Of a stretch of DNA of 64,000 nt, positions 5,690 through 47,656 are shown in pieces (the first letter of the stretch is position 1; every line of letters starts with the position of its first letter). A program made the position numbers and the translations under genes. Under the pieces are notes generated by a model. The model saw only the letters and a program-made list of their open reading frames with translations. It made no database searches and was not told where the DNA came from. The stretch lies in the sequence record NC_054930.1; one strand, given 5' to 3'. The DNA comes from Escherichia phage PP01.

Positions 5690-6327
5690 TGAATGAACCC
5701 CAATTACTAATTGAAACTTGGGGTCAACCTGGCGAAATTATTGATGGCGTACCAATGCTTGAATCTCATGATGGAAAAGACTTAGGTTTAAAACCGGGTT
5801 TATACATCGAAGGAATATTCATGCAAGCGGAAGTCGTCAATAGAAATAAACGTCTTTATCCAAAACGTATATTAGAAAAAGCGGTAAAAGACTATATTAA
5901 TGAGCAAGTTTTAACTAAACAAGCTCTCGGAGAATTAAATCATCCTCCACGCGCTAATGTTGACCCGATGCAAGCCGCTATCATTATAGAAGATATGTGG
6001 TGGAAAGGAAATGACGTATACGGACGAGCTCGTGTTATTGAAGGTGACCATGGTCCTGGAGATAAATTAGCAGCTAATATTCGTGCCGGATGGATTCCAG
6101 GAGTTTCTTCTCGTGGATTAGGTTCATTGACTGACACAAATAAAGGTTATCGTATCGTAAACGAAGGATTCAAATTAACTGTAGGTGTTGATGCAGTATG
6201 GGGTCCAAGTGCTCCAGATGCATGGGTAACTCCTAAGGAAATTACCGAATCACAGACGGCGGAAGCCGATACAAGTGCCGATGACGCCTATATGGCTCTC
6301 GCAGAGGCCATGAAAAAAGCGTTATAA
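5689..6327 (+). CDS. 21: Prohead core scaffold protein and protease gp21
   Basis: 212 aa; synteny. Confidence 0.93.
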   Translation: MNEPQLLIETWGQPGEIIDGVPMLESHDGKDLGLKPGLYIEGIFMQAEVVNRNKRLYPKRILEKAVKDYINEQVLTKQALGELNHPPRANVDPMQAAIIIEDMWWKGNDVYGRARVIEGDHGPGDKLAANIRAGWIPGVSSRGLGSLTDTNKGYRIVNEGFKLTVGVDAVWGPSAPDAWVTPKEITESQTAEADTSADDAYMALAEAMKKAL

Positions 6328-6330
6328 ATA
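6323..6330 (+). promoter_or_regulatory. Late promoter TATAAATA for gene 22
   Basis: Exact TATAAATA about 28 nt upstream of ATG. Confidence 0.7.
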
Positions 6331-6357
6331 TTATTATCTAAACAACAGGACTACAAA

Positions 6358-7167
6358 ATGCTTAAAGAACAACTGATTGCCGAAGCACAGAAAATTGATG
6401 CTTCCGTTGCTCTTGATAGTATTTTCGAATCAGTTAATATTTCTCCGGAAGCAAAAGAAACTTTCGGCACTGTATTCGAAGCTACCGTCAAGCAGCACGC
6501 CGTTAAATTAGCTGAATCTCATATCGCTAAAATTGCTGAAAAAGCAGAAGAAGAAGTAGAAAAAAATAAAGAAGAAGCCGAAGAAAAAGCTGAGAAGAAA
6601 ATCGCTGAGCAAGCTTCTAAATTCATTGACCATCTTGCAAAAGAATGGCTCGCTGAAAATAAATTAGCAGTTGATAAAGGCATCAAAGCCGAACTGTTTG
6701 AATCCATGCTTGGTGGATTAAAAGAGCTCTTTGTTGAACACAACGTTGTTGTTCCAGAAGAATCAGTTGATGTTGTAGCTGAAATGGAAGAAGAGCTGCA
6801 AGAACATAAAGAAGAATCAGCTCGTCTGTTCGAAGAACTCAATATGCGCGACGCATATATCAATTATGTGCAGCGTGAAGTGGCATTGAGCGAAAGTACT
6901 AAAGATCTGACTGAGTCTCAAAAAGAAAAAGTCTCTGCTCTGGTCGAAGGTATGGATTATTCAGATGCATTCTCAAGTAAATTGAGTGCAATCGTAGAAA
7001 TGGTGAAGAAATCTAATAAAGATGAAAGCACTATTACTGAGGGTATAAATACTCCTGATACTGAAGCAGCCGGACTAAATTTCGTCACTGAAGCTGTAGA
7101 AGATAAAGCTGCACAGGGTGCAGAAGATATTGTAAGTGTATATGCGAAAGTCGCATCTCGTTTCTAA
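6358..7167 (+). CDS. 22: Major prohead scaffolding core protein gp22
   Basis: 269 aa, acidic coiled-coil-like; synteny. Confidence 0.93.
   Translation: MLKEQLIAEAQKIDASVALDSIFESVNISPEAKETFGTVFEATVKQHAVKLAESHIAKIAEKAEEEVEKNKEEAEEKAEKKIAEQASKFIDHLAKEWLAENKLAVDKGIKAELFESMLGGLKELFVEHNVVVPEESVDVVAEMEEELQEHKEESARLFEELNMRDAYINYVQREVALSESTKDLTESQKEKVSALVEGMDYSDAFSSKLSAIVEMVKKSNKDESTITEGINTPDTEAAGLNFVTEAVEDKAAQGAEDIVSVYAKVASRF
7044..7051 (+). promoter_or_regulatory. Late promoter TATAAATA inside the 3' end of gene 22 (gene 23 promoter)
   Basis: Exact TATAAATA about 135 nt upstream of the gene 23 ATG. Confidence 0.6.
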
Positions 7168-7185
7168 TTTTAAAGGTTAACACAA

Positions 7186-8751
7186 ATGACTATCAAAACT
7201 AAAGCTGAACTTTTGAACAAATGGAAGCCATTACTGGAAGGTGAAGGTTTACCGGAAATTGCTAATAGCAAACAAGCGATTATCGCTAAAATCTTTGAAA
7301 ACCAGGAAAAAGATTTCCAGACAGCTCCGGAATATAAAGACGAAAAAATTGCTCAGGCATTCGGTTCTTTCTTAACAGAAGCTGAAATCGGTGGTGACCA
7401 CGGTTACAATGCTACTAACATCGCTGCAGGTCAGACTTCTGGCGCAGTAACTCAGATTGGCCCAGCTGTTATGGGTATGGTACGTCGTGCTATTCCTAAC
7501 CTGATTGCTTTCGATATTTGCGGTGTTCAGCCGATGAACAGCCCGACTGGCCAGGTATTCGCACTGCGCGCAGTATATGGTAAAGATCCAATCGCTTCCG
7601 GTGCTAAAGAAGCATTCCACCCAATGTATGGTCCAGATGCAATGTTCTCTGGTCAGGGTGCTGCTAAGAAATTCCCAGCTCTGGCTGCTAGCACACAAAC
7701 CGTTGTAGGTGATATCTATACTCACTTCTTCCAGGAAACTGGTACCGTGTATCTGCAAGCTTCAGCTGTAGTAACAATCGATGCTGGTGCGACTGATGCT
7801 GCTAAATTAGATGCCGAAGTTAAGAAACAAATGGAAGCTGGTGTACTGGTAGAAATCGCTGAAGGTATGGCTACTTCTATCGCTGAACTTCAGGAAGGTT
7901 TCAACGGTTCTACCGATAACCCATGGAATGAAATGGGCTTCCGTATCGATAAACAAGTTATCGAAGCTAAATCTCGTCAGCTGAAAGCTGCTTACTCTAT
8001 CGAATTAGCACAAGACCTCCGCGCTGTTCACGGTATGGATGCTGATGCTGAACTGTCTGGTATTCTGGCTACAGAAATTATGCTGGAAATTAACCGTGAA
8101 GTTGTTGATTGGATTAACTACTCAGCTCAGGTTGGTAAATCTGGTATGACCCTGACTCCGGGTTCTAAAGCTGGTGTATTTGACTTCCAGGACCCAATCG
8201 ATATTCGTGGTGCTCGCTGGGCAGGTGAATCCTTTAAAGCTCTGTTGTTCCAGATTGACAAAGAAGCAGTTGAAATTGCTCGTCAGACTGGTCGCGGCGA
8301 AGGTAATTTCATTATCGCTTCCCGTAACGTAGTTAACGTTCTGGCTTCAGTTGATACTGGCATTTCTTATGCTGCACAGGGTCTGGCTACCGGCTTCAAC
8401 ACTGATACTACCAAGTCAGTATTTGCTGGTGTTCTGGGTGGTAAATACCGCGTATATATCGACCAATATGCTAAACAGGATTATTTCACTGTAGGTTATA
8501 AAGGTCCGAACGAAATGGATGCTGGTATTTACTATGCTCCATATGTAGCTCTGACTCCACTGCGTGGTTCTGATCCGAAGAACTTCCAACCGGTAATGGG
8601 ATTCAAAACTCGTTACGGTATCGGTATCAACCCATTTGCAGAATCCGCTGCTCAGGCTCCGGCTTCTCGCATCCAGAGCGGTATGCCTTCTATTCTGAAT
8701 AGCCTTGGTAAAAACGCTTACTTTAGACGTGTATATGTTAAAGGTATCTAA
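7186..8751 (+). CDS. 23: Major capsid protein gp23
   Basis: 521 aa; N-terminus MTIKTKAELLNKWKPLLEGEG. Confidence 0.98.
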   Translation: MTIKTKAELLNKWKPLLEGEGLPEIANSKQAIIAKIFENQEKDFQTAPEYKDEKIAQAFGSFLTEAEIGGDHGYNATNIAAGQTSGAVTQIGPAVMGMVRRAIPNLIAFDICGVQPMNSPTGQVFALRAVYGKDPIASGAKEAFHPMYGPDAMFSGQGAAKKFPALAASTQTVVGDIYTHFFQETGTVYLQASAVVTIDAGATDAAKLDAEVKKQMEAGVLVEIAEGMATSIAELQEGFNGSTDNPWNEMGFRIDKQVIEAKSRQLKAAYSIELAQDLRAVHGMDADAELSGILATEIMLEINREVVDWINYSAQVGKSGMTLTPGSKAGVFDFQDPIDIRGARWAGESFKALLFQIDKEAVEIARQTGRGEGNFIIASRNVVNVLASVDTGISYAAQGLATGFNTDTTKSVFAGVLGGKYRVYIDQYAKQDYFTVGYKGPNEMDAGIYYAPYVALTPLRGSDPKNFQPVMGFKTRYGIGINPFAESAAQAPASRIQSGMPSILNSLGKNAYFRRVYVKGI

Positions 8752-8777
8752 TCTCTAACGATAGAAACACAATTTTA

Positions 8778-8800
8778 GGGAACCTTCGGGTTCCCTTTTT
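8778..8800. terminator. Hairpin GGGAACC-UUCG-GGUUCCC followed by T5, between convergent genes 23 and segD
   Basis: 7-bp stem, UUCG loop, U-run. Confidence 0.7.
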
Positions 8801-9471
8801 CTATTTTATACGATAGCAATCAGGCATATCATCCGCATTTATCCAATTGCGAATAGTTTTAGGACTAACTTTAAAATGCTCCGCTGCGTAATCAGGATTA
8901 TCAAATTTAACGCCCTTTATACATATTGGAATAAATTTTTTAATACCACCAAGTTTTTCAGAAATAGCTTTACGGTGTGAAATCGATATAGGTTTATTTT
9001 TTCGTGGATGAACATGTGTTTTATAATATTCATTGCGCCCTTTAACTCGCTTCGCAATAGTTTCATCAGATTGCTTAACGCCTGTTTTTGCCTTTGATAT
9101 TTTTCGTTTAGCTTCCACAGTCATTCCTTCTTTTGTTCGTATTGATAACATATTACGATATGAAGGATCTTGCAAATGAACTATAACTGGATTTCCTCTG
9201 CCACCAATAGCAGCATTATAGGTATCAGTTCTCATAACGAATTCCTCATTGACTAGTAAAGCTTCCATTTTATACATCTCCTCAGATGAGGAGAAAGAAT
9301 AAAGAATTTCTTTTTAAAGTTATGAATACCATATTTTTTGATGGATTTTTTGATGTTTACGCCAGAACCCATATAACCATCGTTTTCGTCAAGAGTAGCA
9401 TGAGCTCCGATGTAAATTTTTCCATTGATGATATTAGTAATTTGATATATTAAATATTTCATTTTAAACAT
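8801..9471 (-). pseudogene. segD: GIY-YIG homing endonuclease segD, split by a -1 frameshift in an A5 tract (N-terminal ORF to 9253, C-terminal ORF 8801..9277)
   Basis: N-terminal part has [18 protein letters not shown]...YMGSG (GIY-YIG); restoring one A at about 9311-9316 fuses ...[30 protein letters not shown]... into a 223-aa protein, the remembered T4 SegD length. Confidence 0.75.
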
Positions 9472-9484
9472 CGCTCCGTTTGTA

Positions 9485-9522
9485 TATGAATATAATATCA
9501 TATTACTTTGGTCTTGTAAATA
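9485..9522 (-). promoter_or_regulatory. Early-type promoter for segD (TTTACA, 17 bp, TATTAT)
   Basis: Read on the minus strand upstream of the segD start. Confidence 0.45.
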
Positions 9523-9526
9523 ACTT

Positions 9527-9534
9527 TATAAATA
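9527..9534 (+). promoter_or_regulatory. Late promoter TATAAATA for gene 24
   Basis: Exact TATAAATA about 28 nt upstream of ATG. Confidence 0.7.
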
Positions 9535-9561
9535 GTATTATATTTCAACAAGGAAAATACA

Positions 9562-10845
9562 ATGGCTAAAATCAACGAACTTCTGCGCGAATCAACCACA
9601 ACGAATAGCAACTCAATCGGTCGCCCAAATCTCGTTGCTTTGACTCGCGCTACCACTAAATTAATATATTCTGACATTGTAGCAACGCAAAGAACTAATC
9701 AACCTGTTGCTGCTTTTTATGGTATCAAATACCTTAACCCAGACAACGAATTTACATTTAAAACTGGTGCTACTTACGCTGGCGAAGCCGGATATGTAGA
9801 CCGAGAACAAATCACAGAATTAACAGAAGAGTCTAAATTAACTCTCAATAAAGGCGATTTATTCAAATATAATAATATCGTTTATAAAGTATTAGAAGAT
9901 ACTCCATTTGCTGATATTGAAGAAAGCGACTTAGAGTTAGCTCTTCAGATTGCAATTGTTCTTTTAAAGGTTCGTCTATTTTCTGACGCAGCGTCAACAA
10001 GCAAATTTGAAAGCTCTGATAGTGAAATTGCGGATGCTAGATTCCAGATTAATAAATGGCAAACCGCGGTTAAATCTCGTAAACTTAAAACTGGCATCAC
10101 AGTTGAATTAGCGCAAGATTTAGAAGCAAATGGATTCGATGCTCCTAATTTCTTGGAAGATTTGCTTGCAACTGAAATGGCAGATGAAATCAATAAAGAT
10201 ATTCTGCAGTCTTTGATTACAGTGTCAAAACGCTATAAAGTTACAGGAATTACTGATAGTGGATTCATCGATTTGAGTTATGCATCTGCACCTGAAGCGG
10301 GTCGTTCATTATATCGAATGGTATGTGAAATGGTTTCGCATATCCAAAAAGAATCAACTTATACAGCAACGTTCTGTGTTGCTTCAGCTCGTGCCGCTGC
10401 GATTCTTGCTGCATCAGGTTGGTTAAAACATAAACCAGAAGATGATAAATATCTTTCACAAAATGCCTACGGGTTCTTAGCTAATGGTTTACCGCTTTAT
10501 TGCGATACTAACAGTCCATTAGATTATGTAATCGTTGGCGTAGTAGAAAATATCGGCGAAAAAGAAATTGTTGGATCAATTTTCTATGCTCCGTATACAG
10601 AAGGTCTCGACTTAGATGACCCTGAACATGTAGGTGCATTTAAAGTTGTTGTTGATCCAGAAAGCTTACAACCGTCTATCGGTTTATTAGTTAGATATGC
10701 TTTATCAGCAAATCCTTATACCGTAGCAAAAGATGAAAAAGAAGCAAGAATAATTGATGGTGGAGACATGGATAAAATGGCGGGTCGTTCAGATTTGTCT
10801 GTTTTATTAGGTGTTAAATTACCAAAAATTATTATTGATGAATAA
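9562..10845 (+). CDS. 24: Head vertex protein gp24
   Basis: 427 aa; gp23-like fold region; synteny. Confidence 0.95.
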   Translation: MAKINELLRESTTTNSNSIGRPNLVALTRATTKLIYSDIVATQRTNQPVAAFYGIKYLNPDNEFTFKTGATYAGEAGYVDREQITELTEESKLTLNKGDLFKYNNIVYKVLEDTPFADIEESDLELALQIAIVLLKVRLFSDAASTSKFESSDSEIADARFQINKWQTAVKSRKLKTGITVELAQDLEANGFDAPNFLEDLLATEMADEINKDILQSLITVSKRYKVTGITDSGFIDLSYASAPEAGRSLYRMVCEMVSHIQKESTYTATFCVASARAAAILAASGWLKHKPEDDKYLSQNAYGFLANGLPLYCDTNSPLDYVIVGVVENIGEKEIVGSIFYAPYTEGLDLDDPEHVGAFKVVVDPESLQPSIGLLVRYALSANPYTVAKDEKEARIIDGGDMDKMAGRSDLSVLLGVKLPKIIIDE

Positions 10846-10851
10846 AACAAA

Positions 10852-10871
10852 GGGACCGAAAGGTCCCTTTT
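10852..10871. terminator. Hairpin GGGACC-GAAA-GGUCCC followed by T5, between convergent genes 24 and rnlB
   Basis: Inverted repeat and U-run. Confidence 0.65.
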
Positions 10872-10874
10872 TAT

Positions 10875-11882
10875 TTAGCTCACCAACTCAATCCAAGCTG
10901 GACGAAGTACATCTTGTACCATTTTAACTAATTCCTTTTTAATCAAAGAAGGATTATCTGCTTGAGTTAGAGTAATACCTTCACGAGAAGTTTCTTCCAA
11001 AATATCTTGAACAGTTAGCCCCATCACCTTTCCAAAATCCTTTGGACCAATTTCGCCAATTTTAGAAATAACGTTATTTACGCGGTTTAGTGTAACGTAA
11101 CAAGCTAAAATTCCAACCAATTTGTTATCAGCTTCTGATAGTTCAACTTTAGCTTTAATAGGCTTATCAGACTTTTTCTTTTCACTAAATTTAGAGTTCT
11201 TGCATTTAATCGCTACACGAGCACCGTTTGGCAGCCATTTAGGGAAACAAGGCTTCAGAACATAACCTTCTGCAGTATTATCACCAATAACATTAGCATC
11301 AAATACACAATTATTTGCTTCGACAAGGTCTTCCGATGCCGTAACGTTATAAGCGGCTAAGACGGAATCAAGGTCGTTTGGAATCATGATAAGAGCATCA
11401 AATGTTCCACGTCCAAGCATTGGTGCCATTTTAAAACCAAACGTATTACAGAAATCTTGCATTTCGTAATCACTCATGTAATAAGTATCACCGCTTTCCG
11501 TGTTTATGATGATATCGAATACATAGAAATCTTTTTCACCGTAGTCAACACCTTTCTGAATTCCACCACCAGCGAATTCACCAAAGACTTGATATGTCAC
11601 CGGCACTGAAGTTGAAATACTGTCCATGACTTCTTGAACGCCTTTAATAGCTTTATCATACTTTTTGAGTACTATTTCATAGCCATAAAAATCTTCTGCT
11701 GGAAGAATAGGGCCAGTACGTTTAGCGCAAGTTACTTTATCACGCTCAATAATCAATGAGAAATTTGTACCATGAATCTTTTCACGAGCTACCCACTCCC
11801 CACCAGTCAATCCCAAGCTATAAAGTTTTTCAATAAATTTAGAGTTGTAATGATTTTCAAGACTGCTATACTTTTTAAACAT
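10875..11882 (-). CDS. rnlB: RNA ligase 2
   Basis: 335 aa; N-terminus [16 protein letters not shown]; nucleotidyltransferase motif I KIHGTN. Confidence 0.93.
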
Positions 11883-11891
11883 AATTAATCC

Positions 11892-12170
11892 TCAAAATGT
11901 AATTTCTAACCAATCACCATCACGCTGATCACTATTGACTTTAAAGCTGAATCCTTCTTTTCTCAGCCAATCACCAATTTCTTCAGTAATCAATTTATCA
12001 CGAGCAATACAATAATAATTAAAATGTGTTTTACCTTGTTCAGCTGCTTTATTAGCAAGTTCCGAAAAATCTTTAATAAAACATTCTAGCTTAAACTGTT
12101 TACTTTTGAATGCTTTTTCGCGTAATTGATTAGCAAAAGATTCATTTTCATAAAGATCATACTGTTCCAT
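11892..12170 (-). CDS. 24.2: Hypothetical protein (T4 24.2 position)
   Basis: 92 aa ORF; synteny. Confidence 0.7.
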   Translation of the reverse strand: MEQYDLYENESFANQLREKAFKSKQFKLECFIKDFSELANKAAEQGKTHFNYYCIARDKLITEEIGDWLRKEGFSFKVNSDQRDGDWLEITF

Positions 12171-42339: not shown

Positions 42340-43509
42340 TTAAAAATATTTTTTAAAACTCATCATAACTTTATCATCAACATCATTATCAATCTGTGCT
42401 ACAAGGTAAGATGACAGTTCTACTTCTTGCGGCGCGGATTGAACATTATCAGAATTAAGATATTCACGAATCCAAGGATATGGATGTTTAACCGGAGCAT
42501 CGGTAATTGGGCATGGAAGACCGCACTGTTTCATACGAGATACAGTTAAGTAATCAATAAAGCTCCACATGCTATTTGTATTTAATCCAGGAACATCACC
42601 ATCTTTAAATAAATGAACTGCCCAATCTTTTTCTTGACGGTTAACTTCCATGAAAATATCAACTGCTTCTTGTTCACACTCTTGAGCAATTTTAACCCAT
42701 TCATCACCGTCAGTGCCAAGTTGAAGTTGACGAATAATATATTGAGTGCCTTTAAGATGAAGTTGCTCATCGCGCGCAATGAACTTCATAATCTTAGCAT
42801 TACCTTCCATGATTTCCATGTTCTTATGGAAGTTAAAGGTACATGCGAAAGATACATAAAAACGAATAGCTTCCAATGCATTGATTACATGAAGGCAAAG
42901 ATAAAGAGATTTCATTAGTGCTCGTTTAGTACATTCAACAACTTTGCCTAACTCTTCTTTACGAAATCCTTCTGATAAAATTCCTTCATAATCTTCAACC
43001 GCATTCTGATATTCACGAGTCTTAACTAGAACATCATCATAATAGCGACCAATGGACTCGGCACGTTTCATAATAGCTTTATCTAATACAATCTCATCAA
43101 ATACCTTTGATGGATCAGTATAAAGATTTCGCATGATATGAGTATATGAACGGCTGTGAATAGTTTCACTAAAAGTCCATGTAGCAACCCATGTATCAAG
43201 ACTTGGGTCTGAAATTAATGACATAAGTACAGCAGACGGTGCACGACCCTGAATGCTATCCAAAAGTGATTGATACTTCAGGTTATTAGTAAAAATATCT
43301 TGCTGATACTGAGGAAGCTTGTTAAATTGTGCAGCATCCATCATCAAGTTTACTTCTTCAGGACGCCAGAAAAATGACAACTGCTTTTCAGTTAAATCTT
43401 CAAAAACTTTATGACGTTGAATATCATAACGCGCAATACCAAGACCTGAACCGAAGAACATAGGTTCTTTTAAAACATCAACTGGATTTGTATTAAAAAC
43501 TGTGCTCAT
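42340..43509 (-). CDS. nrdB: Ribonucleotide reductase small subunit, uninterrupted (no intron)
   Basis: 389-aa continuous ORF. Confidence 0.95.
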   Translation of the reverse strand: MSTVFNTNPVDVLKEPMFFGSGLGIARYDIQRHKVFEDLTEKQLSFFWRPEEVNLMMDAAQFNKLPQYQQDIFTNNLKYQSLLDSIQGRAPSAVLMSLISDPSLDTWVATWTFSETIHSRSYTHIMRNLYTDPSKVFDEIVLDKAIMKRAESIGRYYDDVLVKTREYQNAVEDYEGILSEGFRKEELGKVVECTKRALMKSLYLCLHVINALEAIRFYVSFACTFNFHKNMEIMEGNAKIMKFIARDEQLHLKGTQYIIRQLQLGTDGDEWVKIAQECEQEAVDIFMEVNRQEKDWAVHLFKDGDVPGLNTNSMWSFIDYLTVSRMKQCGLPCPITDAPVKHPYPWIREYLNSDNVQSAPQEVELSSYLVAQIDNDVDDKVMMSFKKYF

Positions 43510-43560: not shown

Positions 43561-45825
43561 TCATAATTTACAGGATGAACAATCTTCAGCTTTTGGAGTT
43601 TCTATTTCATAATCATCAGTACCAGAACCATCACGGGTATTATGATAATAGAAATTTTTTCCGCCAAAATACCAAAAATACAAAAGGTCATCAATCATTA
43701 CAGACATTGGAACCTTTCCTTTTGGAAAAATCTGCGGGTCATAATATGTATTCGCTGAAGCTGATTGACATACCCATTTCAGCATAATAGCTACCTGCGT
43801 AAGATAAGGTTTATTACCTTTCTTAGCTAATTTCCATGTATAATCATAGAGGTCTATGTTATGTTCAATATTGGGCACGACTTGATTAAAGGAACCCTCT
43901 TTTGATTCTTTAACCGAGACTGGTCCACGTGGAGGCTCGATACCATTTGTACTGTTAGAAACTTGGGAAGATGACTCACATGGCATAAGTGCTGATAATG
44001 TGCTATTACGGATGCCAAAGAGCTTAAGGTCTTCCCGCAGCGCCGACCAGTCACAAACGTATTTTGGAGCTGCGATTTGATCAATCTTTTTATTGTACCA
44101 GTCGATAGGTAATTCGTCTCGAGACCAACGAGTGTCTGAATAATATTCGCAAGGTCCTTTTTCTTTGGCGAGCTTAATGGATGCTTTAATGAGTCCATAC
44201 TGTAGTCTCTCAAATAGTTCATGTGTTAAATCGTTAGCATCTTCATAAGAAGCAAAGTTACTTGCCAGCCAAGCTGCATAGTTAGTAACACCTACACCAA
44301 GATTTCGACGCTTTTTAGCTTTTTCTGCTTCAGGAACTGGATATCCTTGGTAATCCAAAAGATTATCAAGAGCACGAACTTGGACTTCTGCCAATTCATT
44401 AATTTTATCTTGGTCTTGCCAATCGAAGTTATCCAACACAAATGCAGATAACGTACACAATCCAATTTCAGCATCAGGACTATTCACATCATTTGTTGGA
44501 ATAGCAATTTCACAGCACAAGTTACTCTGACGAATAGGTGCCTTTTCACGAATAAACGGAGTATAGTTATTCGTATTATCAATGAACTGTACATAAATCC
44601 TTGCTGTTCCTGAGCGTTCAGTCATGAGCAATTCAAATAATTCACGAGCTTTAATACGCTTTTTACGAATATTAGGATCTTTTTCTGCTGCTTCGTATAA
44701 TTCACGGAAACGGTCTTGGTCTTTAAAATAAGAATAATAAAGCTCGCCACCCATTTCATGCGGACTGAACAAAGTAATGTAGTCGTTCTTTCCAAACCGT
44801 TCCATCATCAAATCATTCAGCTGGACGCCATAATCCATATGACGGATACGGTTTTCTTCTACACCTTTGTTATTTTTCAAAACGAGAAGATTTTCAACTT
44901 CCAAATGCCAAATAGGATAATAAGCAGTAGCAGCGCCGCCACGAATTCCGCCCTGTGAACATGATTTAACAGCAGTCTGAAAATGTTTCCAAAAAGGAAT
45001 AACCCCAGTATGACGCACTTCACCTGTGCCAATCTTAGAACCTTCGGCACGAATCATACCAACGTTAATGCCGATTCCAGCTCGTTTAGAAATATACTCA
45101 ACAATTGAAGCAGAAGCCTTATTGATAGACTTCAGCGAATCACCTGCCTCAATAACAACGCATGAACTAAATTGCCGAGTCGGAGTACGACATCCAGCCA
45201 TAATAGGAGTTGGCAATGAAATCTGTCGAGTAGATACTGCTTCATAAAAACGGATAACGTGTTTTAATCTATCAACAGGTTCATCTTGATGCAATGCCAT
45301 TCCAATAGTCATAAATGCAAACTGTGGAGTTTCATAAATTTGACCAGTGGTTTTATCTTTAACGAGATATTTTTCTTTTAATTGCATCGCCCCGGAATAA
45401 GTAAATTCCATATCCCGCTCATGCTTAATTTTTGATTCTAAAAATGTAATTTCTTCTGCTGAATATTTTGACAACAATTCAGGGTCATATTTACCTTCAT
45501 TTACGCAGTAAGAAATATGGTCAATAAATGAACGTGGTTCATACTGCCCATAAACATGCTTACGAAGAGCGAACATTAAACAGCGCGCAGCTACGTATTG
45601 ATAATCAGGCTCTTCAACTGAAATAGAATTCGCAGCAGCCTTAATGACAATAGTCTGAATGTCATCAGTTGTCATTCCATCACGGAGATATGATTTAATA
45701 TTTTCATATAATTCATAAGGATCTACAGATGTTCCTTCAGCTGCCCAAGATAAAACTTTAATAATTTTTTGCGGGTCAAAGCTTTGAGAAACACCACTAC
45801 TTTTGATAACATTAATTAATTGCAT
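43561..45825 (-). CDS. nrdA: Ribonucleotide reductase large subunit
   Basis: 754 aa; synteny. Confidence 0.96.
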   Translation of the reverse strand: MQLINVIKSSGVSQSFDPQKIIKVLSWAAEGTSVDPYELYENIKSYLRDGMTTDDIQTIVIKAAANSISVEEPDYQYVAARCLMFALRKHVYGQYEPRSFIDHISYCVNEGKYDPELLSKYSAEEITFLESKIKHERDMEFTYSGAMQLKEKYLVKDKTTGQIYETPQFAFMTIGMALHQDEPVDRLKHVIRFYEAVSTRQISLPTPIMAGCRTPTRQFSSCVVIEAGDSLKSINKASASIVEYISKRAGIGINVGMIRAEGSKIGTGEVRHTGVIPFWKHFQTAVKSCSQGGIRGGAATAYYPIWHLEVENLLVLKNNKGVEENRIRHMDYGVQLNDLMMERFGKNDYITLFSPHEMGGELYYSYFKDQDRFRELYEAAEKDPNIRKKRIKARELFELLMTERSGTARIYVQFIDNTNNYTPFIREKAPIRQSNLCCEIAIPTNDVNSPDAEIGLCTLSAFVLDNFDWQDQDKINELAEVQVRALDNLLDYQGYPVPEAEKAKKRRNLGVGVTNYAAWLASNFASYEDANDLTHELFERLQYGLIKASIKLAKEKGPCEYYSDTRWSRDELPIDWYNKKIDQIAAPKYVCDWSALREDLKLFGIRNSTLSALMPCESSSQVSNSTNGIEPPRGPVSVKESKEGSFNQVVPNIEHNIDLYDYTWKLAKKGNKPYLTQVAIMLKWVCQSASANTYYDPQIFPKGKVPMSVMIDDLLYFWYFGGKNFYYHNTRDGSGTDDYEIETPKAEDCSSCKL

Positions 45826-46142
45826 AAGTCCTCAACTTGAAAATCGTCTTTAAACAATCGGTTAACTATATGAGCTATTATATCACCATGACACGGCTTT
45901 GGTTTACATGTGCATCCTAGCCTCATTCCACGTAAAGGCTCTAAATGTGCTTTAGTTATTTCTCCGGATTTAATTCGACGTATAAAATCTTTTTTAAATA
46001 ATTCAATGGCAGCCTCCCGGCTGCCAGCATCTTTACCGACGTAATTTCCCCAAAATGTACCGCGGTGAATATTAACATCAAAGTCGGATTTATATTTATT
46101 CACTACCCGGCATAGACGGCCCGCGCGGTGATAATTCAGCAT
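45816..46142 (-). CDS. Small protein with C-x-C...P-C-H-G-D motif (nrdA.1 position)
   Basis: 108 aa; ...[18 protein letters not shown]... Confidence 0.65.
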
Positions 46143-46371
46143 ATTGTTTTTCCGTCAAAACAGTAATATCGTAGTAACAGTCAGAAGAAGTTTTAACTGT
46201 GGAAATTTTATTATCAAAATACTCACGGGTCATTTTATGAGTATAATATTTTTTACCATAAATGATAATAGGCTGATTTGGTCCTGGAACTTCTAACTCA
46301 CTTGGGTTAGGAAGTGTAAAAAGAACGGCACCAGAAGTATCTTTAAATCGTAAAATCATATATCCTCTCAA
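46096..46371 (-). CDS. Hypothetical protein (nrdA.2 position)
   Basis: 91 aa ORF; start uncertain. Confidence 0.55.
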
Positions 46372-46382
46372 TTAAATTAAAA

Positions 46383-47243
46383 TTATACCGCCATCTTTCC
46401 TTTAATTGGCGGGTGAGATACATAGTTGTTAAGAACGAAATCTTTAGGTCTAAGTTTAAGAACATATTTTAATTGTTCTTTAGTAGAAAGATATCGGAAT
46501 TTATAAGGTAGACCACTTATTACCAGCTCACAAAGCTCTTTAGGTTCACGCCTCAAAATTTCTTTACACTGTTCTACGTGATTCATATAGATATGAGTAT
46601 TACCACCAGAAAATATCAAATCTCCTGGAATAAGATTACACATCTTAGCTACAATATGAACTAACGTAGCATATGATGCAATATTAAATGGAAGACCGAG
46701 AAAAACATCTACCGAACGTTGATACCACTGCAAATCCAAATAGCCATTACGCACATTAAACTGATAGAACATATGACAAGGCGGTAATGCCATATATTTA
46801 AGTTCAGCTGGATTCCATGCTGAAACAATTTGACGCCTATCATTTGGCAGTTTTTTAATACGATCAACAACTTCTATAATTTGGTCTACACCACCAAAAT
46901 CACGCCACTGTTTTCCATAAATTGGACCAAGTTCACCGCTATGATACCCTAAATCTTTTGCCTGATTTTCGTAATTTTCATCCCAAACTGTTTTGCCTTG
47001 AATTAATGAATCGTGCTGAATTAATCGTAAATCATTGACATTTGTGCTTCCTGATAAAAACCAAAGCAGCTCAGCAATGCAAGCTTTCCAGGCGAGCTTC
47101 TTAGTTGTTACCGCAGGAAAACCTTTAGTTAAATCCCAGCGTAATTTAGTACCAAACAAAGCAATTGTTCCTGTGCCTGTTCGGTCATCGGTTTCATAGC
47201 CATTTTCAAAAATGTCTTTAATTAAATCTTGGTATTGTTTCAT
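46383..47243 (-). CDS. td: Thymidylate synthase, uninterrupted (no group I intron)
   Basis: 286-aa continuous ORF; N-terminus MKQYQDLIKDIFENGY; active-site PCH. Confidence 0.97.
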   Translation of the reverse strand: MKQYQDLIKDIFENGYETDDRTGTGTIALFGTKLRWDLTKGFPAVTTKKLAWKACIAELLWFLSGSTNVNDLRLIQHDSLIQGKTVWDENYENQAKDLGYHSGELGPIYGKQWRDFGGVDQIIEVVDRIKKLPNDRRQIVSAWNPAELKYMALPPCHMFYQFNVRNGYLDLQWYQRSVDVFLGLPFNIASYATLVHIVAKMCNLIPGDLIFSGGNTHIYMNHVEQCKEILRREPKELCELVISGLPYKFRYLSTKEQLKYVLKLRPKDFVLNNYVSHPPIKGKMAV

Positions 47244-47288: not shown

Positions 47289-47636
47289 TCAATACGGTTT
47301 AGCATCAAATTTTCTCTCAATTTCAGGCGTGAAGTATAATTCTTTGCCACGTTTGGAAAAGCGACCAATAATATGATAATTATTCTCATCAAACGTAATA
47401 TTGCCAATATCCATGGCTTTCAACCAAATATCGATATTTCTATCCAGTTTTATATCAAAATTCCAATACGGAGAACTATTACCGAAAATACTGCAAGCGG
47501 ATTCAGTGAAACAACTACTATAAATCTTGTCTTTAGGAACTACTAATTGATAGACGCCTTTAATAAACTGAGGACCCTGCCATTTAGGTTGTTTCGCGTC
47601 TTTTTCTAATAGAATAGGGTAATAATTAAAATTCAT
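47289..47636 (-). CDS. Hypothetical protein inserted between frd and td (115 aa from ATG; 119 aa from the upstream GTG at 47648)
   Basis: ORF filling a roughly 410-bp frd-td spacer; no recognisable motif. Confidence 0.55.
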   Translation of the reverse strand: MNFNYYPILLEKDAKQPKWQGPQFIKGVYQLVVPKDKIYSSCFTESACSIFGNSSPYWNFDIKLDRNIDIWLKAMDIGNITFDENNYHIIGRFSKRGKELYFTPEIERKFDAKPY

Positions 47637-47656
47637 ATTTTCCGCCACGCATTATT

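Follow-up and report, generated by a model that had tools for sequence, protein, structure and literature searches.

Organization of the nrdA.1 locus

The window analyzed here is a stretch of 64,000 nt from Escherichia phage PP01 (NC_054930.1), and all positions given below refer to that whole stretch. Within it, next to the gene for the large subunit of ribonucleotide reductase (RNR), nrdA, the program-made list of open reading frames (ORFs) has an ORF of 108 codons plus stop at 45816..46142 on the minus strand, with an ATG start. A sequence-only reading had singled out this ORF for a Cys/His motif in a small protein adjoining nrdA, and had likened the motif to the signature of a widespread, uncharacterized domain family, believed to be catalogued as a DUF. 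Both points hold. The motif occupies residues 76–87 (G76-C77-T-C79-K-P81-K-P-C84-H85-G86-D87), the ORF overlaps nrdA by 10 nt, and the product matches the Pfam family DUF4326 (PF14216) with E = 5.5e-22 and a score of 78.7 bits, against a gathering cutoff of 25. The match covers residues 11–90, which correspond to profile positions 1–81 of 82. The same ORF matches phrog_464, a family annotated as function not known (E = 7.6e-49), and has no match in NCBIfam. It is the one copy of DUF4326 in the window.

At the DNA level, a 1-kb region around the ORF recurs in 513 phage records, 487 of which cover at least 80% of the query, and it is 97–99% identical to Tequatrovirus genomes (for example, 98.7% to VEc74 and 97.1% to T2). 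In the T2 record (LC348380) the counterpart ORF, which has identical overlaps with its neighbors, is annotated "nrdA.1, NrdA.1 conserved hypothetical protein". Judging from these comparisons, there is hardly any doubt that the ORF is the T4-type phage gene nrdA.1 and encodes a stand-alone DUF4326 protein. It is the same gene as in T2 and T4, with 108 codons, nrdA.2 upstream, nrdA downstream and the same overlaps, and the products differ by a few substitutions. A spurious or chance ORF was ruled out by the conservation and the Pfam score. The gene, the domain family and a computational prediction of its function are all already on record, and the window departs from what is known of nrdA.1 and DUF4326 only by minor subclade substitutions. 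The features of the gene, all on the minus strand, are as follows.

45816..46142, minus strand: nrdA.1 coding sequence, stand-alone DUF4326 protein (ORF list; PF14216 at 78.7 bits; placement relative to nrdA as in T2 nrdA.1)
45873..46112, minus strand: DUF4326 domain, residues 11–90 (Pfam envelope, translation and model confidence)
45882..45917, minus strand: signature loop G76–D87, presumed active or metal site (sequence, conservation in 153 copies, secondary structure of the model)
46038..46106, minus strand: N-terminal conserved block, residues 13–35, VVN15...D22..R27G.xWG32N33 (conservation in 153 copies)
45816..45825, minus strand: 10 nt, ATGCAATTAA, shared by the stop of nrdA.1 and the start codon of nrdA (ORF coordinates and sequence)
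46096..46142, minus strand: 47 nt shared, in different frames, by the start of nrdA.1 and the 3' end of nrdA.2 (ORF coordinates)
46151..46156, minus strand: GACGGA, possibly a weak Shine-Dalgarno-like element, 9–14 nt 5' of the nrdA.1 ATG (read from the sequence)

Directly downstream, nrdA (43561..45825) encodes a protein with the ATP-cone and RNR large-subunit domains of Pfam. Since the stop codon of nrdA.1 overlaps the start codon of nrdA, the arrangement implies co-transcription, and the two genes are probably also translationally coupled. On the other side, nrdA.2 matches DUF5496 along the full profile (1–87 of 87), as far as its own stop, and the T2 annotation carries the same 47-nt overlap between nrdA.2 and nrdA.1. 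The sole in-frame ATG, GTG or TTG between M1 and C77 of NrdA.1 is a GTG at V14, within the conserved first strand. The genes nrdA.2, nrdA.1 and nrdA thus form a chain of overlapping genes, in which the 47-nt overlap is unusually long and the other is 10 nt. Farther upstream of nrdA.1 are the genes for thymidylate synthase (td), a 119-aa ORF and dihydrofolate reductase (frd), and downstream are nrdB, denA, rnlA and pseT. It is near certain that nrdA.1 is transcribed together with the frd-td-nrdA-nrdB nucleotide-metabolism genes.

Conservation of the signature across DUF4326

A first, word-indexed search recovered T4-like relatives only, in 72 clusters. A profile search raised the number of DUF4326 clusters to at least 7,300, and an exhaustive search of representatives gave at least 9,904 clusters at 50% identity (E ≤ 1e-3), 1,801 of them at E ≤ 1e-10. 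To judge which residues are conserved, the 150 best representatives of the 50%-identity clusters, with 153 copies of the domain among them, were used for an alignment to a family hidden Markov model. C77 and C84 are present in all 153 copies, H85 in 152, C79 and P81 in 151 each, G86 in 144 and D87 in 142. Outside the motif, N33 and L70 (152 copies each), R27 (147), G32 (142), D22 (141) and N15 (140) are also nearly invariant. The claim that the motif is a genuine Cys/His family signature therefore survives, because DUF4326 is matched and the Cys and His residues are conserved in homologues.

The DUF4326 match of the PP01 protein is full-length, and the signature residues of the family (VVN, D, R, WGN and LGCxCxPxxCHGD, which include N15, D22, R27, N33, C77, C79, P81, C84, H85, G86 and D87) are all present, save that P34 is replaced by Tyr. 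This is one of four positions at which the T4-type subclade departs from the rest of the family: N24 (Tyr in 118 of the 153 copies), H26 (Gly in 122), Y34 (Pro in 138) and M73 (Lys in 118). A further Cys, C11, is invariant among the T4-likes, but across the family the position is Thr in 72 of 153 copies and Cys in 27. As C11 is mostly not Cys in DUF4326, it lies outside the conserved site.

Some proteins of the family have two or three DUF4326 domains in tandem (P0134, of 352 aa, P0138, P0216 and P0226), and one viral contig (L057) carries two separate DUF4326 genes, four genes apart (+0 and +4).

Predicted fold

An AlphaFold2 model of NrdA.1, built on an alignment of 56 sequences, has a mean predicted local distance difference test score (pLDDT) of 90.6 and a predicted template-modeling score of 0.83. 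Over residues 11–90 the pLDDT is 92–97 in most 10-residue blocks, and 83 in the block 31–40. The elements follow one another in the order strand 12–15, helices 42–59 and 64–70, strand 74–77, loop 78–84, helix 85–96 and a short C-terminal helix. The Cys motif falls in the loop 78–84, modeled with a pLDDT of 96, with C77 ending the preceding strand and H85 starting the helix that follows. In the model, then, a conserved Cys stands at the C-terminal end of a strand and is followed by a loop and a helix, as in the rhodanese/Cys-phosphatase superfamily.

Searching the PDB with the model by Foldseek returned nothing below E = 2. In the BFVD there were 17 hits at E ≤ 1e-3, and the matches were almost exclusively DUF4326 proteins; their sources are tailed phages, viruses of haloarchaea, Pandoravirus, Pithovirus, Marseillevirus and a crustacean bacilliform virus. 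On DUF4326 proteins of phages, archaeal viruses and giant viruses the model superposes with TM scores of 0.6–0.85. On the strength of the model, the predicted DUF4326 fold therefore has no close solved representative. Sequence searches against the PDB with the NrdA.1 protein, the DUF4326 profile and the neighboring DUF488 protein of bacterial operons (see below) likewise gave chance-level matches only. One of these, to a thioredoxin glutathione reductase (E = 0.14), was rejected, as it covers residues 1–48, outside the motif.

Relation to DUF488, RapZ and the Cys-phosphatases

Iyer, Burroughs and Aravind (2022, PMC9503650) predicted that DUF4326 forms a clade of rhodanese-phosphatases, which would process the terminal phosphates that ADP-ribose products carry on their ribose. 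We compared the family with its proposed relatives by profile alignment in hhalign. A narrow DUF488 profile, built from 42 close sequences encoded next to DUF4326 in operons, aligns with the DUF4326 profile at P = 7.6e-4 and a probability of 25%. The alignment sets the DUF488 segment LLCSEHKPHHCHRR over the DUF4326 segment LGCx-CKPxxCHGD, so that the signature loops align residue for residue. Proteins of DUF488 (PF04343, the "active DUF488-N3" subclade) share with DUF4326 the pattern C-x..-x-P-x-x-C-H at the same strand-loop-helix position. They differ in having C-S-E-H...C-H-R-R, with an extra Glu and with Arg after the His, where DUF4326 has C-x-C...C-H-G-D, and the N-terminal halves of the two do not align.

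A 2023 abstract by Burroughs and Aravind in NAR Genom Bioinform reportedly defines a "RapZ-C-DUF488-DUF4326 clade". In our hands a RapZ-C profile of 93 sequences was not significantly similar to DUF4326 (P = 0.31) or to DUF488 (P = 0.13), and neither was the DUF4326 profile to a single RapZ sequence; we therefore claim no homology to RapZ-C at the sequence level. Permissive alignments retain the order of elements, with FDVRFLPNPHW and IGCTGGKHRS of RapZ at the corresponding places. The C-terminal domain of RapZ (PF22740; PDB 5O5S), which binds small RNA and a sugar phosphate, is fused to a P-loop kinase-like domain. Its loop, C-T-G-G-K-H-R-S, conforms to C-x5-R and has no counterpart of the second and third Cys of DUF4326. 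Compared with PTP, DUSP, PTEN and Cdc25/rhodanese, DUF4326 is without C-x5-R, has a longer loop with Pro and a much smaller sheet, and has three invariant Cys, not one. Membership of DUF4326 in a RapZ-C/DUF488/DUF4326 clade is plausible, being supported by the literature and in part by our own profile tests.

The conservation pattern and the DUF488 alignment also bear on the main rival to an enzyme with a thiol nucleophile, namely that C77, C79 and C84, together with H85 (alternatively D87 or D22), are ligands of Zn(II), or possibly of an Fe-S cluster. NrdA.1 would then be a zinc-stabilized binding module or a metal-dependent enzyme without a thiol nucleophile. Such a site is compatible with a substrate of the nucleotide or ADP-ribose kind, so that the two views are not fully exclusive. 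In its favor, all three Cys and the His are invariant, and not one Cys alone, and the position aligned with C79 is His in DUF488, a swap typical of metal ligands. Pro-containing, Cys-rich loops are common in zinc knuckles, and the loop was modeled without a ligand at very high confidence. Several observations stand against a metal site. C84 and H85 are adjacent at the start of the helix and would be awkwardly placed to hold the same ion together, NrdA.1 matched none of the zinc-finger or zinc-ribbon families of Pfam, and RapZ-C, the nearest fold, is to our knowledge not a metalloprotein. The sole other Cys nearby is C11, and a four-Cys zinc site that includes it was rejected, since the position is Thr in most members of the family. 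Taken together, we consider a metal site unlikely, but by a margin that keeps it a serious candidate. The sequence-only reading had called the motif "metal-binding-like". Three Cys and one His are indeed invariant, but this does not establish metal binding: a classical Cys4 site is lost with C11, and the model places the motif where a strand passes through a loop into a helix, a setting in which active sites of the Cys-phosphatase type also occur.

Genomic neighborhoods in phages

From its position in a nucleotide-metabolism cluster, the gene had been proposed to have a nucleotide- or redox-related role. We compared 80 viral and 80 bacterial or archaeal loci, searched with the window's own proteins and extra queries; the set is biased to relatives with the patterns RG[ST]xWGN(P) or RLGCxCxP, and T4-likes ranked first in it. 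The viral loci include the following arrangements.

Close T4-likes (L008–L044), 37 loci: td-(nrdA.2)-DUF4326-nrdA-nrdB-...-rnlA, with denA detected in most
T4-likes (L045–L053), 9 loci: td-DUF4326-denA-rnlA, with no nrdA or nrdB within 8 kb
T4-likes (L055, L056, L059, L060, L072, L083), 6 loci: td-nrdA-nrdB-DUF4326-denA-rnlA
L068, L070, L073, L074, L076, L078 and L082, 7 loci, mostly contigs of ~90–105 kb plus one 14-kb fragment: PNKP and an Rnl1-type ligase 2–4 kb away on the opposite strand
Jumbo-phage loci (L071, L077, L081, L085; contigs of about 350 kb), 4 loci, about 6730–7500: a Thg1-like gene upstream and an N6/N4 DNA methylase three genes downstream
L063–L065 and L067, 4 loci: PhoH (named by eye), DUF4326, a ClpP-like gene, then a weak, sub-threshold match to an HD 5'-deoxynucleotidase
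L075, 1 locus: the anaerobic RNR gene nrdD (6106–7974) directly upstream of DUF4326
L054, 1 locus: a gene for a 1,223-aa NrdA-like protein (8320–11991) directly downstream of DUF4326

Adjacency to nrdA is therefore seen in the 37 close T4-like loci, whereas nrdA and nrdB are absent nearby in 9 other T4-likes, DUF4326 follows nrdB in 6 more, and an RNR gene was found near DUF4326 in none of the 80 bacterial or archaeal loci. Outside the close T4 relatives, RNR is a direct neighbor in two unrelated phage contigs only, L054 and L075. The adjacency is a feature of the Tequatrovirus gene order and not of the DUF4326 family as a whole. What phage DUF4326 genes tend to have around them is nucleotide-metabolism and nucleic-acid-end-repair genes. 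For example, the PNKP in the seven loci listed above is genuine, with a kinase and a HAD phosphatase domain, and these loci have no T4-like td, frd or nrd gene nearby. In the jumbo phages, the Thg1-like gene (tRNA-His guanylyltransferase family, a 3'-5' polymerase) adjoins the solo DUF4326 gene in L077 and L085 and is within three genes of it in L071 and L081.

These neighborhoods bear on the idea that NrdA.1 is an RNR accessory or redox factor, either a Cys thiol-disulfide relay or an assembly factor for T4 NrdA/NrdB, which would explain why the gene overlaps the nrdA start codon. That overlap, the adjacency in the close T4-likes, the six loci with nrdA and nrdB just upstream, and the RNR neighbors in L054 (NrdA-like) and L075 (NrdD) can all be cited for it. 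When NrdA.1 was examined as a thioredoxin- or glutaredoxin-type partner of RNR, the CxxC on a thioredoxin fold was not found. We give this explanation very little credence, and NrdA.1 is probably not a dedicated RNR partner. The proposal of a role from gene position is thus supported only in part: its nucleotide-related half stays plausible, and nothing was found in support of the redox-related half.

Some further features of these loci can be recorded. The PNKP/Rnl1-type ligase loci echo the T4 neighborhood of nrdA.1...rnlA...pseT. The NrdA-like protein of L054 is ~470 aa longer than T4 NrdA and may contain an intein. In T4 itself, group I introns interrupt both td and nrdB; in the window, td (46383–47243, 286 aa) and nrdB (42340–43509, 389 aa) are uninterrupted. 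In some relatives (L012, L027 and L039) the distance between nrdA.1 and nrdB is greater by 1.5–3 kb, which points to an insertion of introns or homing-endonuclease genes. The 119-aa ORF between td and frd (47289–47648, minus strand) matches phrog_1928 (function not known; E = 9.5e-36) and no Pfam family, and the T2 record LC348380 has no gene annotated in the gap that matches it (L001, 5745–6157).

Domain fusions and operons in bacteria and archaea

The T4-type protein is a solo domain, in which it differs from much of the family: about 57 of 100 non-T4-like genes called, mostly bacterial, encode ~200 aa or more. The usual bacterial or archaeal product is ~196 aa, and the representative that was tested is an mSLOG-DUF4326 fusion. 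Among 54 representatives of at least 140 aa surveyed for fusions, domains of SLOG type were the commonest partners (YAcAr 6, mSLOG 6, DprA-like 5 and YpsA 1, in counts that may overlap), followed by NADAR (3 + 1), Macro (2), TIR, DNA polymerase A, RNase H and RNA polymerase (1 each). The same pattern of fusions has been reported before (PMC7824862).

A further candidate explanation is that DUF4326 is itself a NADAR-like N-glycosidase, which would cleave a ribosyl-base or ADP-ribosyl linkage (de-ADP-ribosylation) and would not act on a phosphate. The NADAR profile (PF08719) was not matched by NrdA.1, and we regard this as quite improbable.

In bacteria and archaea, DUF4326 recurs in an operon of the form DuOB (PF22557)-DUF488 (PF04343/PF22751)-(mSLOG-DUF4326), found among loci L089–L167 (for example, L142 7698–8288, L125 7246–7686 and L158 6496–7185). 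The gene directly before DUF4326 is DUF488 in 44 loci, and DuOB ("dual OB") precedes DUF4326 in 37, with a divergent DuOB in 10 more; the counts of 37 and 44 are among ~105 non-T4-like loci, and nearly all come from the 80 genome loci. Both operon partners match components of the PADLOC candidate defense system PDC-M45, DuOB matching PDC-M45A (1.4e-58) and DUF488 matching PDC-M45C (1.2e-67). In PADLOC-DB 2.0 it is these partners only that match, with no hit for the bacterial mSLOG-DUF4326 fusion. Some of the DuOB-DUF488 islands also have GmrSD-N and HEPN genes, and some lie between prfB and lysS, placements that fit a defense island, as expected. DUF488 is a probable paralogue of DUF4326 within a candidate defense operon. 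A literature search on PDC-M45, DuOB and mSLOG returned unrelated word matches only.

A possible function for NrdA.1

Two features favor an enzyme, namely the invariant polar residues and a Cys that closes a strand and leads through a loop into a helix. The chemistry suggested by the fusions and operons is that of NAD/ADP-ribose and of nucleic-acid ends. From the identity of the gene, the residue conservation, the fold confidence, the fusion partners and the operon contexts, all of which were observed in this analysis, we infer that the protein is catalytic, and likewise its nucleophile, its substrate and what it does in infection. The reading towards which we lean, with somewhat less than even confidence, is that NrdA.1 is a small Cys-dependent enzyme acting on phosphorylated ribose.

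DUF4326 would be a small alpha/beta enzyme module whose invariant residues form one site. This site would consist of the strand 74–77, ending in C77, the loop C77-x-C79-x-P81-x-x-C84, and H85-G86-D87 opening the next helix, to which the N-terminal half would add N15, D22, R27 and N33. The layout can be likened to the Cys-loop-helix active site of the rhodanese/Cys-phosphatase superfamily and of its relatives RapZ-C and DUF488. The most likely chemistry would then be a Cys-dependent phosphoryl transfer or hydrolysis, and the likely substrate a phosphorylated ribose, carried either by a nucleotide derived from NAD+ or ADP-ribose or by the end of a nucleic acid. The solo enzyme of T4 would be active early in infection. 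There it might destroy or process a nucleotide or ADP-ribose immune product made by the host, or it might take part in end clean-up alongside the nearby repair genes denA, rnlA and pseT. The T4 solo protein may thus serve counter-defense or repair.

A number of points weigh against such an enzyme. The C-x5-R phosphatase motif is not found in the 153 copies of DUF4326, and the loop has no Arg: the position +6 from C77 is P83 (Ala in 56 and Pro in 43 copies across the family), and +6 from C79 is H85. The invariant loop Pro has no backbone NH, the group with which classical loops bind phosphate, and three invariant Cys with a His are also compatible with the metal site considered above. Because four strongly conserved positions of the family are altered in T4-type proteins (Y24N, G26H, P34Y and K73M), the substrate or pocket of the T4-type protein may differ from that of other members. 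In the searchable literature DUF4326 is mentioned by eight papers, all of them computational or annotation and none biochemical, and nrdA.1 has no known phenotype. NrdA.1 also has no match in PADLOC-DB 2.0.

A more specific form of the proposed Cys-dependent enzyme would make NrdA.1 a counter-defense protein. It would be a catalytic domain standing alone, and a relative of the domain that acts as effector or processing module in the bacterial DuOB-DUF488-(mSLOG-DUF4326) island, which resembles PDC-M45. Early in infection it would dephosphorylate or otherwise inactivate a host signal derived from NAD or ADP-ribose, or a modification at a nucleic-acid end. We consider this a speculative proposal with a low probability of being correct.

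As a sequence feature, nrdA.1 is ordinary, being an annotated T-even gene that belongs to a Pfam family with a published computational prediction of function. Its value is as an experimental handle, since it is a minimal, solo DUF4326 protein of 108 aa in the most tractable phage system, T4/T2. The family is spread over tailed phages, haloarchaeal viruses, giant viruses and bacterial candidate-defense islands, and it has repeatedly been fused to ADP-ribose-processing domains. T4 and T2 offer the simplest experimental route into this very large family, both for its substrate and for the choice between a thiol active site and a metal site. If the counter-defense proposal were true, it would give the first assigned activity to a family of about ten thousand clusters in phages, archaeal viruses and giant viruses.

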